Sequence record: LC519489.1
Length of the DNA stretch: 64,000 bases
From: Escherichia phage SP22
Strand: one strand, 5' to 3'
Shown here one piece after another: positions 3,573 to 15,598 of this stretch. The position numbers and the translations under genes are program-made. The notes under the pieces were generated by a model. It was not told the DNA's origin. It did not search any database and was given only the letters and a program-made list of their open reading frames with translations. Within the stretch, counting starts at the first letter, position 1; every line of letters starts with the position of its first letter.

Positions 3573-3600
3573 AGGCTGCTTCGGCGGCCTTTTTTATTTG
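3573..3600 (+). terminator. rho-independent terminator
   Basis: stem aggctgc/gcggcct with ttcg tetraloop followed by tttttt. Confidence 0.7.
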
Positions 3601-3656
3601 TATTTTGTGCAGAGTGCTGTATAATTGTTGTCACGATAAACTAAACAGGAGAACCA

Positions 3657-4889: not shown

Positions 4890-5354
4890 ATGAACAATAT
4901 CATTACGGTAGCACTGGACGATACGGCAAACAAATCTGAAGTAGTTCGTAAAATGATTCAAGGTAACTTTGAAGGTAAAATTTTCCGTGCTGTTAATGTA
5001 AAAGCTGATGGCAGCATTCGTGAATATCGTGCATTGTTGAACGTTAAGAAGCACGTAAAAGGTGTTGGTTCAACGACTGCACACAAAGAAAACCTGATGA
5101 CTATCTATGATATGGGTAAGGCTTCAGAGTTAGGTGCTGAAGGTATCGTTAAAGAAGGTGCTCCGTATCGCTCTTTCAATCTGGAAACTACCCTTATGCT
5201 TTCCTTTACAAGTGGTTCCAAAACAATCACTTATCTCTTTACTGATGCTGCAACGGTATCTGCTATTAAGGATAGCACTGTCAAAGCTGGCGTAGTTGCT
5301 GCTGCAAAAGCTTCTTCGATGGCTGCAAATATCCTTGCTAAAGTCCTCGGTTAA
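4890..5354 (+). CDS. hypothetical protein (start moved to ATG with SD gagagaag; track ORF began at TTG 4875)
   Basis: ORF track plus RBS inspection. Confidence 0.45.
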   Translation: MNNIITVALDDTANKSEVVRKMIQGNFEGKIFRAVNVKADGSIREYRALLNVKKHVKGVGSTTAHKENLMTIYDMGKASELGAEGIVKEGAPYRSFNLETTLMLSFTSGSKTITYLFTDAATVSAIKDSTVKAGVVAAAKASSMAANILAKVLG

Positions 5355-5367
5355 GGTTAAGATACAG

Positions 5368-5390
5368 GCTCCTTCGGGAGCCTTTTTCAT
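5368..5390 (+). terminator. rho-independent terminator
   Basis: ggctccttcgggagcc hairpin + ttttt. Confidence 0.7.
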
Positions 5391-5406
5391 TTCAGGAGAT
5401 TGTTAA

Positions 5407-5754
5407 ATGACATTTAAAGAGTTCTGTCAAGCTACTTTCATAGTTGTTTTCTTAGTTGGGGCAGGTGTCTGGGGAGGATACTCTTACAGAGACTACCAAG
5501 TTGCTGAAACTGAGCTAAACAATGAGAAGCTGATAAGTGTTGCTAAAGATGCTTATCAGGAAGGATTAGCTACACTGAGCACCAATTACAAAAATGATTT
5601 GAAAGATGTGCTTGCTAAGAATAAGCACACAAAAGAGGTACTAACGTATGAAAAAACTAAGCCAGAGTTTTATAATGTTTGTGTTACTGATAATTATGTC
5701 AGGGTGTTCAACGAACAAAGTGAACAGTACATTCAAAAACTCCCAAGTAAGTGA
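5407..5754 (+). CDS. membrane protein with single N-terminal TM helix (i-spanin-like or exclusion protein candidate)
   Basis: hydrophobic segment FIVVFLVGAGVWGG near N-terminus; SD caggag; 3' end overlapped by lipoprotein ORF in another frame. Confidence 0.4.
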   Translation: MTFKEFCQATFIVVFLVGAGVWGGYSYRDYQVAETELNNEKLISVAKDAYQEGLATLSTNYKNDLKDVLAKNKHTKEVLTYEKTKPEFYNVCVTDNYVRVFNEQSEQYIQKLPSK

Positions 5755-5917
5755 GAGTGACAAGTACACTCAAGAAGAATCACGGTATATCATCAAAGGT
5801 AACACAGGCAGTGATGTAGCAGCAGCACTTGAGTTCTACCGTGACGGCTTTTACCAGTGTACAATTAAAGCTAATAACCTTATTGACATGATTTTATTAG
5901 GGAATAAGCAGCAATGA
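5648..5917 (+). CDS. putative lipoprotein (o-spanin-like or Llp/Cor-like exclusion lipoprotein candidate)
   Basis: lipobox LLIIMSG-C after basic N-terminus; ORF overlaps 3' end of preceding TM-protein gene by about 107 nt in a different frame. Confidence 0.4.
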   Translation: MKKLSQSFIMFVLLIIMSGCSTNKVNSTFKNSQVSESDKYTQEESRYIIKGNTGSDVAAALEFYRDGFYQCTIKANNLIDMILLGNKQQ

Positions 5918-6927: not shown

Positions 6928-7713
6928 ATGGGTATTGTAAAAATAATCAATGGTGATATCTTTGCCGCATTTGATAAAGGTAAGTTTGACATCATCGGTC
7001 ACGGTTGCAACTGTATGAATTTAATGGGTGCAGGTATCGCTGACAAGATTTCTAAACTTTACCCAAAAGCATATGAGACCGATACAGAAGTTTATCTATA
7101 TGCAGGTGGTATAGGACACAAACCCTGTGAAAATTTACTGGGTAATTTCTCTGTAGCACGTTTAAAACAAGGTCGTATAGCTAACCTTTACACTCAGCTT
7201 AAGACTGGTAAAGATGCCCGATACAGTGCTTTAGAGTCATCTTTGAAACAGCTTAACAGATACTGTGAAGTTAATCAGTTGAGGAAAGTTGGTTTACCTA
7301 TGATTGGTGCAGGTATCGGTGGGTTGGACCCTCAAGCCGTCACAGTTATCATCAATCAGGTGATGAAGAGTGTAGATGTTTATCTATATGTCTATGAAGG
7401 AGAGATGTACCACAAGTTACGCTCAGGTTGGAATAACTACTGTGAACCAGAATACTTTGCAGGTGTAGTAACGTTCAAAGATGATACAGTTACCCTCTTC
7501 AGACGAAGAAAAGGTAAGATACATCAAAGTAACCCTCCGGTTGAGAAGATGTCTCTAAGTAACGCTCTAGTTACCCACCTGTCGAAGAGCAATCACAGGA
7601 TAGCCGTAACATTTGGCAGTGATGCAGATACATATATTTATGCAAGAACTGATGAGGATATCGAGACGGTCTTCTCTTCACCGGAAGTTACCTTCTTAGA
7701 CGCAAAGAACTAA
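6928..7713 (+). CDS. macro-domain-like protein (ADP-ribose binding/processing fold)
   Basis: INGDIF...DIIGHGCNCMNLMGAGIA and LPMIGAGIGGL resemble macro-domain Gly-rich motifs; 261 aa. Confidence 0.45.
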   Translation: MGIVKIINGDIFAAFDKGKFDIIGHGCNCMNLMGAGIADKISKLYPKAYETDTEVYLYAGGIGHKPCENLLGNFSVARLKQGRIANLYTQLKTGKDARYSALESSLKQLNRYCEVNQLRKVGLPMIGAGIGGLDPQAVTVIINQVMKSVDVYLYVYEGEMYHKLRSGWNNYCEPEYFAGVVTFKDDTVTLFRRRKGKIHQSNPPVEKMSLSNALVTHLSKSNHRIAVTFGSDADTYIYARTDEDIETVFSSPEVTFLDAKN

Positions 7714-7745
7714 GAAACTCTGTATAATATTCACAATAGACTAAG

Positions 7746-7790
7746 CCTTCCTTATCTGGTAAATTTTTCAGGTAAGGAGGGCTTTTTCAT
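7746..7790 (+). terminator. imperfect hairpin + U-run after macro-domain gene
   Basis: ccttcctta...taaggagg inverted repeat followed by gcttttt. Confidence 0.4.
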
Positions 7791-7964
7791 TTCAGGATTG
7801 TGCAGGTAGAGTTCTGTAGAGAAATCTGTAGAGAGAATTTTGAACTCCAAAGAGAAAATTCATTTTCAAACTGTGCAGGTAATCTCCAAAGAGCTTTTTC
7901 ATTTTCAAAAAGTGCACCCCGCCCAGGTCGGGCAAGAAAAATCATTTTAGAATTGTGCAGGTAG
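7783..7964 (+). repeat. four imperfect direct repeats, consensus TTTCATTTTCA-N5-TGTGCAGGTA (copies near 7783, 7856, 7895, 7937), followed by a C-rich tract 7985-8020
   Basis: read directly; the same CTTTTTCATTTCAGGA motif also sits upstream of the gene at 5407. Confidence 0.6.
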
Positions 7965-8139
7965 GTTTTTATGGAGAGCCATACCAACCCCTCTCCCCCT
8001 ATTACCCCCTCTCTCCCCAAAAGTCAAGAGAAAAATTTGTAGCGGATTGAAAAATAATTCTTGATTTGTGTTCTGTTTTGTGGTAGTCGTGTGCGCACGT
8101 TTCATTACAGTTTTTCCAAAAATATTTTTAAAATTTTTC

Positions 8140-8231
8140 TTGACTCTTTGAACGGGGTTATCTAGTATTTGCATCAACGGGGAGGGAATGACCTTCCCCA
8201 CTAAATAAAGTCCTAAACTGGAGATTCAAAA
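8140..8231 (+). promoter_or_regulatory. cassette type A copy 1: promoter (-35 ttgact 8140-8145, -10 tagtat 8163-8168) + stem-loop ggggagggaatgaccttcccc (8179-8199) + conserved leader ...cctaaactggagattcaaaa-ATG
   Basis: 17-bp spacing; hairpin and leader repeated 7 times in window. Confidence 0.65.
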
Positions 8232-8612
8232 ATGGCATACCGTGCACCTAAATTCATCAACAAAGACAACTTTCGCAACGCACTGGAGAAGTCACTTGAT
8301 GAGAATTTTAAAGGTAACGTTATTGTTGTTCACTCGTTCAATTTCAAGTATGATATTAACGGGAATAAAATCAACCATTACACGGCGACAATGCTAGATG
8401 GTACTCTTTCAAGTGAAAAAGCCATTTTACATGCACTTGCTGGACGTGGTAAAAACCTGATAAGATGCGATAAGAGACGTTATCAGGGTGGCGCATATGG
8501 TTACGATGATGCTGTTTATCATCTTGAAAATATGGGCTATCAAGTAGAAAAAGCTGGAGTGTCTCAAATAATCGGTAGTGATGGTTATGTAACAATCTTC
8601 AAAATTAACTGA
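8232..8612 (+). CDS. hypothetical protein (hyperplastic early region)
   Basis: ORF directly after conserved leader with GGAG SD. Confidence 0.55.
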   Translation: MAYRAPKFINKDNFRNALEKSLDENFKGNVIVVHSFNFKYDINGNKINHYTATMLDGTLSSEKAILHALAGRGKNLIRCDKRRYQGGAYGYDDAVYHLENMGYQVEKAGVSQIIGSDGYVTIFKIN

Positions 8613-13641: not shown

Positions 13642-13708
13642 ATTACTAATCAACGGGGAGGGAATGACCTTCCCACTAAACAAAGTCCTAAACTGGAGAA
13701 TCTAAATT
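13616..13708 (+). promoter_or_regulatory. cassette type A copy 7: -35 ttgcaa 13616-13621, -10 taaatt 13639-13644, hairpin 13654-13673
   Basis: 17-bp spacing, conserved hairpin. Confidence 0.55.
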
Positions 13709-13957
13709 ATGTCAACTATCCGCGTAACTGTTAATGCTTATGGCTGCCACAAACTTGATGCAAAATTCGATATCGGTGGAACAGATAACACCTTTGACCT
13801 TATCAAAATGCTGATTCAGCAGGTGATACCAGATTATAACCCTACTGATGACTTCTGGAAAGATGCCGTAAAAGAAGCCATAAACGAGGAATCTCACTAC
13901 CATTATTGGGGTGACTTGATTGTCTCTCTATACTACAGCAAACAAGGCTACAACTAA
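13709..13957 (+). CDS. hypothetical small protein
   Basis: ORF after cassette. Confidence 0.5.
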   Translation: MSTIRVTVNAYGCHKLDAKFDIGGTDNTFDLIKMLIQQVIPDYNPTDDFWKDAVKEAINEESHYHYWGDLIVSLYYSKQGYN

Positions 13958-13965
13958 TCGACGCA

Positions 13966-14019
13966 ACGGGGCTAAATAGCCCCAGATACCTTTACAGCCC
14001 CTTAAATGGGGCTTTTTTA
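13966..14019 (+). terminator. tandem hairpins (ggggctaaatagcccc; gccccttaaatggggc + tttttt) ending the + strand early block
   Basis: inverted repeats and U-run. Confidence 0.65.
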
Positions 14020-14029
14020 CGTCTATCAA

Positions 14030-15560
14030 ATCCTTATACAATCCCTTTCCTTTCCTTTCCAGAATCTTATCAGACCTTAAAAGCAATAACTCTATAGTCT
14101 ACTCTATAACCTTTTATCAAATCAACTTAAATATAAGCCCATAACCCGAAAGGGAAGGGCAACCCCTTAAACGCTCTATAACGCTCTATAACAGCCTTAT
14201 CAACCTAACTTAAGCAATCATATTAACCCACTCTAAAAAGCCCTTTATAGAGCTTCCCAGAGCCTTAGAAGAATCTTATAAGGGTGTAAGCTTTATCATC
14301 TCGTTAGTATTCTTGTGAACTACTAAAAAGGGCTTGGTAGTTCCTTTAAAGTATGTTATAGGGGCTATAAAGTTACTCAAAAGTTACGTAAATGCTAGCC
14401 CCCTTAACATTTTCTTAACAATTTCTTAACAAACCCTACATAGTTATGCTTGTTAGAGACTTGTTAGCCTCTTGTTAAATCTCTGTTAAGACCACGTAAA
14501 AGCCTTGTAAGAACCTTTGACATAGCCTTTAAAGCCCCTGTAAAGCCCTATAAAGAGGTATCTGTACAGTTGGGGTGTAATTACTAGGAAGAGGCTTAAA
14601 AGGGCTTACAAGGAGCTATAGAGAGCTTTTAAGAGGTATGTTTAGAGAATCACTAAGAAAGAGAGGGAACGATAAGAAAAGAGATAGTGACCTTGTTAAC
14701 AGCTTGTTAAAAAGATTAAACACTTGTTAGAAACTTGTTAATTATCTTAACAAAATAACTCTTAAAAATTAACTTGTTAGCTCTTGTTAGTCATCTGTTA
14801 AGCATCTGTAAAGACTATTCAGCACTTGTTAAGAAACTGTTAAGCTCTTGTTAGTTCTGTTAAGAATCTGTTAAGACCTTTGAAGAGTTGTTAAGAAGAT
14901 GTGAGAACTGTTAAGAGATTGTTAAGGATATTTTAAAATTTTGCAAAGGGGGTGTTACAGGGATGTTAAGGGCTACCAAGCAGATATACATCTTCTACAG
15001 ATATTTTTCAGTTCCTTCAAAGACCCTAAAAATGACTTGACAGTCCTATTTTATAAAAATTTTAAAATTCTGAATAATTACCTAGACAGTCTTTTAAAAA
15101 TACAGGCATAAACAGGCTTATAAGATACCTTGTTAGTACCGTGTTAGACCTTGTGAGATAAGGTCTGTAAAGATATTCCTGTTAAGTTTGTTAAAACAGT
15201 CTATATAGAGGCTTAGTAATACCTAGTGAACACCTATAGAGGGTATCATAGCTGACATAATGGGTTACTGTTAAGTAACACAGGTAACCTAGAGATTAAG
15301 AGGTGTATAGGAGCTTCTAAGAGGGTGTAGAGGTATGGTTAAGGTGATTGTATAGGTTGTTAAGAAGGCTTGTTAGAAGAGTGTTTAGAAGGGCTATACA
15401 GAGGGGCTATTAAGACCACTAGATAGTTACTAAGATACTATATAGTACTATATAACTATATATAGAGAGTAAGATTAAGAAGGTTGTTAAGAAGGATAGA
15501 TATTTTATTCACATATGATGGTGACCCATAGGTTGGGACAACCGATAAAATTTTATAAAA
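14030..15560. repeat. ORF-free 1.5-kb region with dense short dispersed repeats, consensus (C)TTGTTA(A/G) or CTGTTAAG, in both orientations (25 or more copies, densest 14400-14930)
   Basis: no ORF of 60 aa or more in any frame; motif counted by eye; flanked by convergent terminators. Confidence 0.7.
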
Positions 15561-15598
15561 ATTAAAAAGCCCCCAATTAAGGAGGCTCTTAAGATATT

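Follow-up and report, generated by a model that had tools for sequence, protein, structure and literature searches.

What is the role of the four imperfect direct repeats that lie in the DNA of Escherichia phage SP22 (sequence record LC519489.1), in a non-coding stretch between the late/lysis operon and the early gene block? The locus was studied in a window of 64,000 nucleotides, i.e. the whole stretch of DNA analysed, for which an earlier note had offered as explanations a small non-coding RNA locus or a set of phage-specific promoters or operators. As judged from sequence and conservation, the repeats probably form a functional array of protein-binding DNA sites. That this array is an iteron-type replication-initiation site, and thus an origin, is a possible further step that we put forward tentatively. 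Outside the terminal-repeat region, no other cis element is both unique in the genome and conserved across the sampled Ounavirinae lineages, which makes the array the obvious place to look for an origin or for control of the early/late boundary. We regard it as an undescribed element of a familiar class, that of repeated, iteron-like protein-binding sites, and not as a new kind of system. The phages of the Felix O1 group are classics of diagnostics and biocontrol, and the array offers a short conserved non-coding target for their engineering, e.g. as a safe insertion boundary or a knock-down site. The literature searched contains no mention of the motif and no map of origins or transcription starts for Felix O1-like phages; temporal regulation is described as not understood in the Felix O1 genome paper, and the array region is not discussed in the wV8 paper.

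Between positions 7000 and 9000 the window is 99.9% identical to the Felixounavirus wV8 (EU877232/NC_012749) and likewise to several O157 typing phages, and in the array region a window position equals the wV8 record position + 74. Elsewhere in the window the divergence from wV8 is 6-13%, which marks the genome as a wV8-like mosaic. The conserved motif of the repeats is bipartite, TCATTT-N7-GTGCA(G), and occurs in four copies, all on the + strand, starting at 7787, 7860, 7899 and 7942. The repeats extend over 7785-7808, 7858-7881, 7897-7920 and 7940-7963; with their flanks, the units and the long spacer between the first two are as follows.

7782..7808, + strand: unit 1, CTTTTT-TCATTT(7787-7792)-CAGGATT-GTGCA(7800-7804)-GGTA; position kept in 19 of 21 aligned relatives.
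7808..7831, + strand: AGAGTTCTGTAG and AGAAATCTGTAG, 12-mers that adjoin each other in the long spacer separating unit 1 from unit 2; moderately conserved.
7846..7881, + strand: unit 2 (extended), TCCAAAGAGAAAAT-TCATTT(7860-7865)-TCAAACT-GTGCA(7873-7877)-GGTA; from sequence and alignment.
7885..7920, + strand: unit 3 (extended), TCCAAAGAGCTTTT-TCATTT(7899-7904)-TCAAAAA-GTGCA(7912-7916)-C; degenerate in this genome.
7928..7963, + strand: unit 4 (extended), TCGGGCAAGAAAAA-TCATTT(7942-7947)-TAGAATT-GTGCA(7955-7959)-GGTA; from sequence and motif search.

The start-to-start spacing is 73, 39 and 43 bp and the gaps between copies measure 49, 15 and 19 bp, which replaces the 40-65 bp given in the earlier note. 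Its version of the motif, TTTCATTTTCA-N5-TGTGCAGGTA, has to be replaced as well by the conserved form above, since the gap between those half-sites is 3-4 nt. The four same-strand copies that it reported do exist; however, only three of them carry TGTGCAGGTA, which occurs exactly three times in the 64-kb window (7799, 7872 and 7954, all in the array). Copy 3 reads AGTGCACCCC, a 2-nt deletion in wV8 having turned the GTGCAGAC of relatives into GTGCAC. Among the units, the variants GTGCAGGT and GTGCATAG are distinguished. At unit 3 the - strand carries a GC-rich hairpin (GCCCGACCTGGGCGGG) with a T run (7917-7937), which was flagged as terminator-like. It is present in some relatives only, others having GAGAAAAATCAGGTCGGGC instead, and is for this reason probably non-functional.

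The search of the full genome for the motif, suggested along with the first description, was run on about 88 kb, comprising the 64-kb window and the remaining wV8 sequence. On both strands there were exactly four matches to TCATTT-N7-GTGCA, all within the array, whereas about 0.06 are expected from the base composition. The 5′ half alone (TTCATTTTCA) shows no enrichment: the window holds 14 matches where 13.2 are expected. Besides the direct terminal repeat (DTR) region and the promoter cassettes, the array is the sole multi-copy direct-repeat array in the large non-coding gaps. Tandem Repeats Finder (TRF) called no tandem repeat for the wV8 array because the copies are too diverged and their spacing is too uneven.

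The intergenic region was found in 255 phage records. We aligned 21 distinct homologous versions of 71-95% identity, the loci being taken from pattern scans of IMG/VR. In almost all 21 Felixouna/Susp/Moogle-type loci the four sites are at the same positions, down to 71% identity; only three units are found in two loci (L038 and L011), both with a different upstream gene. The alignment extends the conserved unit to about 35 bp, TCCAAAGRG-W4-5-TCATTT-YMRAWTY-GTGCA-K-R-T. When the core columns (TCATTT and GTGCA, times four) are compared with the other columns of 7785-7965, 40 of 44 are invariant as against 60 of 137 (Fisher p = 1e-8).

The array is also present in a different genus. Erwinia phage vEam_PM_6 belongs to Kolesnikvirus, and its macro-domain protein shares only 43% identity with the one in wV8. 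In this phage the gap after the macro-domain gene contains a terminator, four tandem units of GG-N4-WTTTTCATTTYNRAWTYGTGCATAR with periods of 37, 37 and 39 bp, a C-rich tract (CGCCCACCCTCCCCTCTACC) and then a promoter, an A/T-rich UP-like stretch with TTGACT-17-TATATT about 130 bp beyond the tract. Here TRF does call the array (period 37, 3.8 copies, score 139). In the complete genome of 84,671 bp the motif occurs exactly four times, all in the array and on one strand. Over about 30 nt, unit 4 of wV8 is nearly identical to unit 3 of the Erwinia phage (GGCAAGAAAAATCATTTTCGATTTGTGCA), and a BLAST search with the Erwinia intergenic region as query matched 186 Felix-type records over the array part only. 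A divergent 88-kb contig (L056) has five units downstream of its macro-domain gene; the proteins of this contig share roughly 30-60% identity with wV8 proteins (tblastx). A pattern of two units, scanned against IMG/VR, GTDB genomes and metagenomes, revealed true arrays in Ounavirinae-like contigs only, and no array in Enterobacterales chromosomes or prophages. The remaining matches fell on repeats within the coding sequence of tail-fibre-like genes or on tandem repeats without relation to the array. An unrelated phage has two units ahead of its terminase genes (L047); these and a 38-bp array (L139) are probably chance look-alikes. The latter, on the unrelated and more GC-rich metagenome contig Ga0049105_1006888, consists of at least six copies of a similar bipartite word, TCATTTYGTACCTGTGCAG, with a 38-bp period (4990-5330) in a non-coding stretch of about 1 kb; besides a resemblance by chance, it could be an array of analogous kind.

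Two invariant blocks, each of 5-6 bp, with a 7-bp spacer of fixed length and variable sequence between them, all in one orientation, are the signature of an asymmetric protein site. The occurrence of three to five copies at one locus per genome, kept where other DNA no longer aligns, speaks for a repeated site that assembles a higher-order complex. We therefore favour a cis-acting DNA element of three to five same-orientation, asymmetric bipartite sites, W5-TCATTT-YMRAWTY-GTGCA-K-R, each copy most likely binding one molecule of a sequence-specific DNA-binding protein. Since the blocks are 13 bp apart from centre to centre, such a protein would contact two successive major grooves. Of the explanations first offered, operator sites thus come closest if they are read broadly as protein-binding DNA sites, a reading that is favoured by the two blocks about one helical turn apart, their fixed orientation, their uniqueness and their conservation. 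In consensus scans the units had no conserved match to Fis, IHF, CRP, marbox or OmpR-like sites. Resemblances to CRISPR (clustered regularly interspaced short palindromic repeats) repeats as mimicry, to boxA, to NtrC half-sites and to XerC arms, drawn by eye, were partial, not conserved across lineages, and were discarded.

What such a complex would act on depends on its surroundings. The array is located within a gap of 518 bp (7714-8231) between the terminator of gene 12 and the first early promoters. Upstream lies a + strand operon with an SLT-domain protein, spanins (as annotated in relatives) and the macro-domain gene, here gene 12, a 'phosphatase' (Pfam Macro) with its 3′ end at 7713. 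Downstream, gene 14 (start at 8232) is the first in a series of small genes, each with a repeated sigma70-type promoter cassette upstream; the wV8 annotation labels these cassette repeats DR_1 to DR_9, with DR_6 annotated in the region 8140-8168. The features that accompany the array in the gap are listed below.

7743..7789, + strand: strong rho-independent terminator of the gene-12 operon, a 17-bp stem followed by a T run; annotated as terminator in EU877232 and corresponding to t13 of Felix O1.
7979..8022, + strand: C-rich, G-free tract of 44 nt; its core CCCCTCTCCCCCTATTACCCCCTCTCTCCCC (7988-8018) has 21 C, 8 T, 2 A and 0 G.
7999..8027, - strand: weak candidate leftward promoter; -35 TTGACT (8027-8022), 17-bp spacer, -10 TAATAG (8004-7999).
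8018..8066, strand not assigned: ultra-conserved block of 49 bp, AAAAGTCAAGAGAAAAATTTGTAGCGGATTGAAAAATAATTCTTGA; 90-92% identity to Moogle/Susp types, flanks 50-72%.
8061..8089, + strand: candidate promoter P_a, TTGATT-17-TAGTCG, read by eye; -35 at 8061-8066, -10 at 8084-8089; below the scan threshold.
8140..8168, + strand: early promoter P_b, an A/T-rich UP-like stretch with TTGACT-17-TAGTAT; from the promoter scan and the DR_6 annotation.

The 49-bp block is the best-conserved stretch of the region, above the array itself. It comprises an A/T-rich upstream region and the -35 element of P_a and, on the - strand, the leftward TTGACT; these divergent -35 elements are arranged around a shared A/T-rich core. 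In Moogle/Susp types the -35 element of P_a reads TTGACT, and the leftward TTGACT (8027-8022) shares its UP context, AAATTTTTCT..TTGACT, with the strong promoter P_b. The latter drives gene 14 and is the first of the repeated promoter cassettes. A/T-rich stretches are found at 8030-8060 and at 8117-8140.

In this setting, protein bound at the four copies would assemble into a nucleoprotein complex immediately ahead of a promoter block that is divergent and A/T-rich. An array serving as origin would recruit or position an initiator beside strong host-type promoters, and promoter transcription together with the A/T-rich DNA might allow opening and priming for a T7-gp4-like primase-helicase and the DNA polymerase. 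The C-rich tract and the terminator would then be flanking or insulating features. Some observations are in line with such a function. At least three direct repeats of one orientation, with an asymmetric site of about 17-22 bp, are present in each case (four in wV8, four in Kolesnikvirus, five in L056). We count as origin-like context that no second array of this type occurs in the large non-coding gaps (the DTR region and the promoter cassettes apart) and that the array adjoins the conserved A/T-rich block with its divergent promoter elements. The replisome, too, is T7-like, with a Toprim + DnaB_C fusion (Pfam); in T7, a replisome of this type initiates next to promoters near one genome end. 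Accordingly, the locus shares with the T7 primary origin the replisome type, tandem promoters and A/T-rich DNA near one end of the genome. However, the T7 origin has no iteron array and needs the phage RNA polymerase, which Felix O1-like phages lack. Closer in form are the iterons of lambda ori, P1 oriR, SPP1 oriL and T4 oriE, which like the array consist of several asymmetric direct repeats of about 20 bp, in one orientation and unique to the replicon, and adjoin A/T-rich DNA and promoters. By eye, TGTGCAGGTAG resembles at 8 of 11 positions TGTGCTGGAGG, the core of the P1 RepA iteron, which is no more than a lead. As for DnaA-box-like words, each unit of the Erwinia phage holds a box with one mismatch (CTATGCACA, TTATGCACG).

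A number of points weigh against an origin. The Felix-type units of wV8 are poor DnaA boxes with three mismatches, so that DnaA is not convincing as the common ligand. In contrast to the iteron systems, the array has no adjacent or recognisable Rep or initiator gene. Pfam searches of the ten upstream and ten downstream neighbours gave no DNA-binding or Rep-like domain, and among these 20 flanking genes and seven genes of the replication module only Macro, SLT, Toprim+DnaB_C, GIY-YIG and PRA-PH were found, none an initiator; as most of the neighbours are ORFans, the absence of an initiator is not proven. Classical iterons are contiguous, with units of about 20-22 bp, whereas the units of the array are longer (about 35 bp conserved) and are spaced more widely and less regularly, at 37-75 bp. 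Moreover, this spacing is not in helical phase between the genera. GC skew shows no break at the array and follows the direction of transcription. The left half of the unit resembles terminator tails found elsewhere, and the repeat could therefore stem in part from duplication and not from function. Finally, the searched literature, in which some queries were loose, gave no replication, transcription-start or binding data for Felix O1-like phages.

The main rival to an origin is a regulatory or boundary array, in which a bound phage or host protein acts on transcription and not on replication; we consider it only slightly less likely than the origin. In a regulatory form, the protein would repress or activate the adjacent first early promoters, be it P_a, P_b or the leftward promoter. 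In a boundary form, a roadblock acting with t13 and the C-rich tract would insulate the late/lysis operon from the early block. The location fits well: the array is always found between the terminator of the upstream operon and the first early promoter; it precedes P_a by 100-280 bp and lies beside the most conserved block of the region. In L038 and L011 the module still travels with the promoter block despite the other upstream gene. Yet sites of this kind are missing at some ten further early promoters downstream, and the array can thus not be a general early-gene operator. Four sites distributed over 180 bp, at least 100 bp from the promoter, are unusual for a simple repressor, and Pfam analysis revealed no regulator among the flanking genes.

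The boundary form depends in part on the C-rich tract, which follows the array in most lineages. The first description had recognised a pyrimidine-rich tract here and was right to call it unusual. Its RNA on the + strand, i.e. the sense strand downstream of t13, would resemble a Rho utilization (rut) site, although with 44 nt it is shorter than the typical 70-80 nt. The - strand (8018-7988) reads GGGG AGAGA GGGGG TAATA GGGGG AGA GGGG and matches the canonical G-quadruplex pattern (four runs of at least three G, loops of 1-7 nt), so that a putative quadruplex would lie on the template strand; the pattern is also found in Moogle/Susp types. The tract is kept in these types, in the Erwinia phage and in L056, where it lies between units. 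However, 10 of the 21 aligned sequences, all of them Felix-type, have it swapped for unrelated sequence of equal length. The tract is thus ancestral yet dispensable, which counts against the regulatory or boundary array. The exchange itself is sharply delimited. Between unit 4 and the conserved block (7966-8017) two unrelated 'alleles' of equal length occur, the G-free C-rich one in wV8, UAB_Phi87, HY02 and the Susp/Moogle types, and one with a G-rich start on the + strand (GGGTGCAGGTGGGGATGTCGCC...) in L024, L029, L023, L008, L035, L005, L016, L033, L022 and L036. Only a 'TA' is invariant between them, as in a clean replacement of a segment inside a conserved frame.

Less likely still than a site of transcriptional control is an array of unstructured RNA motifs, present in read-through transcripts from upstream or in a leftward transcript from 8027-7999. 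The motifs could be sites for an RNA-binding protein or RNase, as in a sponge or a processing region, or belong to an antisense RNA directed at the late/lysis operon. The units indeed share one orientation relative to transcription and begin at a terminator tail, and the - strand has a conserved -35/UP element that is directed into the array. The Erwinia phage has, to the right of its array, a better leftward candidate on the - strand, TTGACG-18-TATACT (read by eye). In wV8, however, the -10 element (TAATAG) lacks the critical final T, and the consensus promoter scan does not call the candidate. This -10 element lies within the variable tract and reads TAGCCT in the other allele, with TA invariant. 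A - strand terminator that would bound such an RNA is not present. A search of the locus against Rfam gave no family, the best matches being far below the gathering scores, and folding z-scores of -0.97 to +2.08 on both strands of four lineages (wV8, a Moogle-type phage, the Erwinia phage and L056) are indistinguishable from shuffles. As no promoter/terminator pair brackets the array either, the small non-coding RNA locus proposed earlier is disfavoured. Furthermore, two invariant blocks of 5-6 nt with a variable-sequence spacer fixed at 7 nt are the classical signature of duplex-DNA recognition.

The physical ends of the genome were another candidate for the locus, and this was rejected. A record that ends beside the C-rich tract (MN850610) had suggested such an end, but its ends look like palindromic assembly artefacts. 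The direct terminal repeats of UAB_Phi87, 608 bp as determined experimentally (PMC4837284, Fig. S1), map to 14406-14979 of the window, so that the DTR lies 6.4 kb downstream of the array; PhageTerm gave a DTR of 581 bp for Pr103Blw. The DTR homologue is situated inside a non-coding region of 1.96 kb (13642-15598) that is dense in TGTTAAGA, CTTGTTAG and CTATAA words. Transcription converges on this region from both sides, and the record of the Erwinia phage begins in a similar region of TGTTAA words. A pac site at the array was likewise rejected. Terminase repeats such as the lambda cosB R sites and the SPP1 pacL/pacR boxes are, like the array, genome-unique direct repeats, which are bound by a small DNA-binding subunit, but here the ends are remote from the array and have repeated words of their own (TGTTAAGA).

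The position relative to the DTR allows another reading, by analogy with the injection-stop signal (iss) of T5, in which ejection would pause after entry of a terminal early block, for example because the array binds a membrane-associated host protein. We consider such a DNA-entry checkpoint very unlikely. The array does form the inner boundary of a terminal block of 6.4-7.7 kb beside the DTR in wV8 and the Erwinia phage, with genes that are small, poorly conserved and driven by host promoters; the DTR ends (14979) at a distance of 7.0 kb, about 7.9% of the genome, from the end of the array (7964). The T5 iss, too, consists of conserved non-coding repeats at the inner edge of a variable terminal early block, about 8% from the end, and in both cases the untranslated repeat region is far better conserved than the neighbouring genes (bioRxiv 10.1101/866236). 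The DnaA-box-like 9-mers in the Erwinia-phage units are a feature that Davison proposes for iss. On the other hand, the T5 iss region is made up of inverted repeats, palindromes and paired DnaA boxes inside a terminal repeat of 10 kb (Davison, bioRxiv 10.1101/866236), whereas here four direct repeats lie 6.4 kb outside a DTR of about 0.6 kb, and the Felix-type units are not DnaA boxes. In addition, the distance to the end varies from about 4.4 to 7.7 kb. The argument is one of pure analogy, and neither two-step transfer nor the first-entering end is known for Felix O1-like phages. There is only a slim chance of a two-step genome transfer by Felix O1-like myoviruses on the model of T5, a terminal host-takeover block of about 7 kb entering first and the remainder following after a pause at the protein-bound array. 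If they did, two-step ejection would be a convergent strategy in an unrelated phage subfamily, with a simple and mutable stop signal.

A similarly faint prospect is that the array has no function and is a passively carried relic of tandem duplications of a terminator tail with its downstream sequence. The idea starts from unit 1, whose left half is supplied by the T-tail CTTTTTCATTT of the gene-12 terminator, and from a second occurrence of the same sequence, which lies outside the array.

5382..5397, + strand: second exact copy of the 16-mer CTTTTTCATTTCAGGA, comprising the tail of terminator t5 and the Shine-Dalgarno (SD) sequence of the gene at 5407.

The recurrence of the 5′ part of the motif upstream of 5407, mentioned in the earlier note, is hence real, the 16-mer CTTTTTCATTTCAGGA being exact at 5382-5397 and at 7782-7797. 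However, at 5382 no GTGCA follows, and the sequence is the ordinary tail of t5, with the ribosome-binding site of the next gene directly after it. According to the Felix O1 genome paper, t5 and t13 have the common tail 'ctttttcattt', and the left half of unit 1 can thus be explained as an ordinary terminator tail. Also consistent with a relic are the degenerate copy 3 that wV8 tolerates and the loss of a unit in L038 and L011. Against it, the GTGCA half is invariant, yet not derived from a terminator, the core columns stay invariant (40/44) while the spacers have diverged, and the array persists in genera where the DNA around it can no longer be aligned. Units 2-4 carry the left-half words too, without a hairpin. 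As for the tails themselves (stretches 3594-3612, 5367-5397 and 7743-7797), terminators t5 and t13 have an identical 16-nt tail and downstream sequence, CTTTTTCATTTCAGGA, and after t2 TTATTTGTATTTTGTGCAG matches the array motif with one mismatch. The terminator tails of the wV8-type phage seem to be copies of one another.

That the array consists of phage-specific promoters or encodes a small protein is hardly credible, even though repeated upstream-looking words do occur in this intergenic region and EU877232 annotates an open reading frame (ORF) over it. The first of these proposals, made in the earlier note, is not supported because the motif of a promoter class should be met with repeatedly, whereas this one is limited to a single locus in each of two complete genomes of different genera; the 7-bp gap between the conserved blocks also fits no -35/-10 geometry. 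The remark that the motif does not match sigma70 was accurate, since the promoter scan made no call on any unit. The annotated ORF, wV8 'gene 13' (ACJ71825.1; 54 codons, GTG start, 7800..7964, + strand), is almost certainly spurious. Its GTG start follows a weak SD sequence by 2-3 nt and it has no PHROG match. The alignment shows no codon periodicity (26, 29 and 22 variable columns by phase), and the frame is broken by a 2-nt indel relative to close relatives. Unit periods of 37/37/39 in Kolesnikvirus and 73/39/43 in wV8 cannot keep a reading frame. Rival calls exist on the opposite strand, where UAB_Phi87 annotates different ORFs over the array DNA; an opposite-strand ORF matches a PHROG without function over 21 residues only. 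Spurious ORFs of this type lie over the array in several deposited genomes and should be removed.

Some deposited records break off at the array. The Andreotti contig (MN850610; L002 1-23, L003 end) terminates just before the C-rich tract in a palindromic chimera, and the Erwinia-phage records OR125561 (L149/L150) and OR185440 (L151/L152) have identical ends of 1.1-1.2 kb that include the array. These breaks and overlaps are probably assembly artefacts, of the circular-overlap type in the case of the two Erwinia-phage records; were they genuine, unusual coverage or DNA ends at the array would be suggested. In the divergent contig L056 (reverse complement, 5610-5760), TTAACA-type words (TTTTTAACA, TTATTAACA, TCATTCACA) directly follow the array and resemble relaxed DnaA boxes as well as words of the Felix-type terminal-repeat region.

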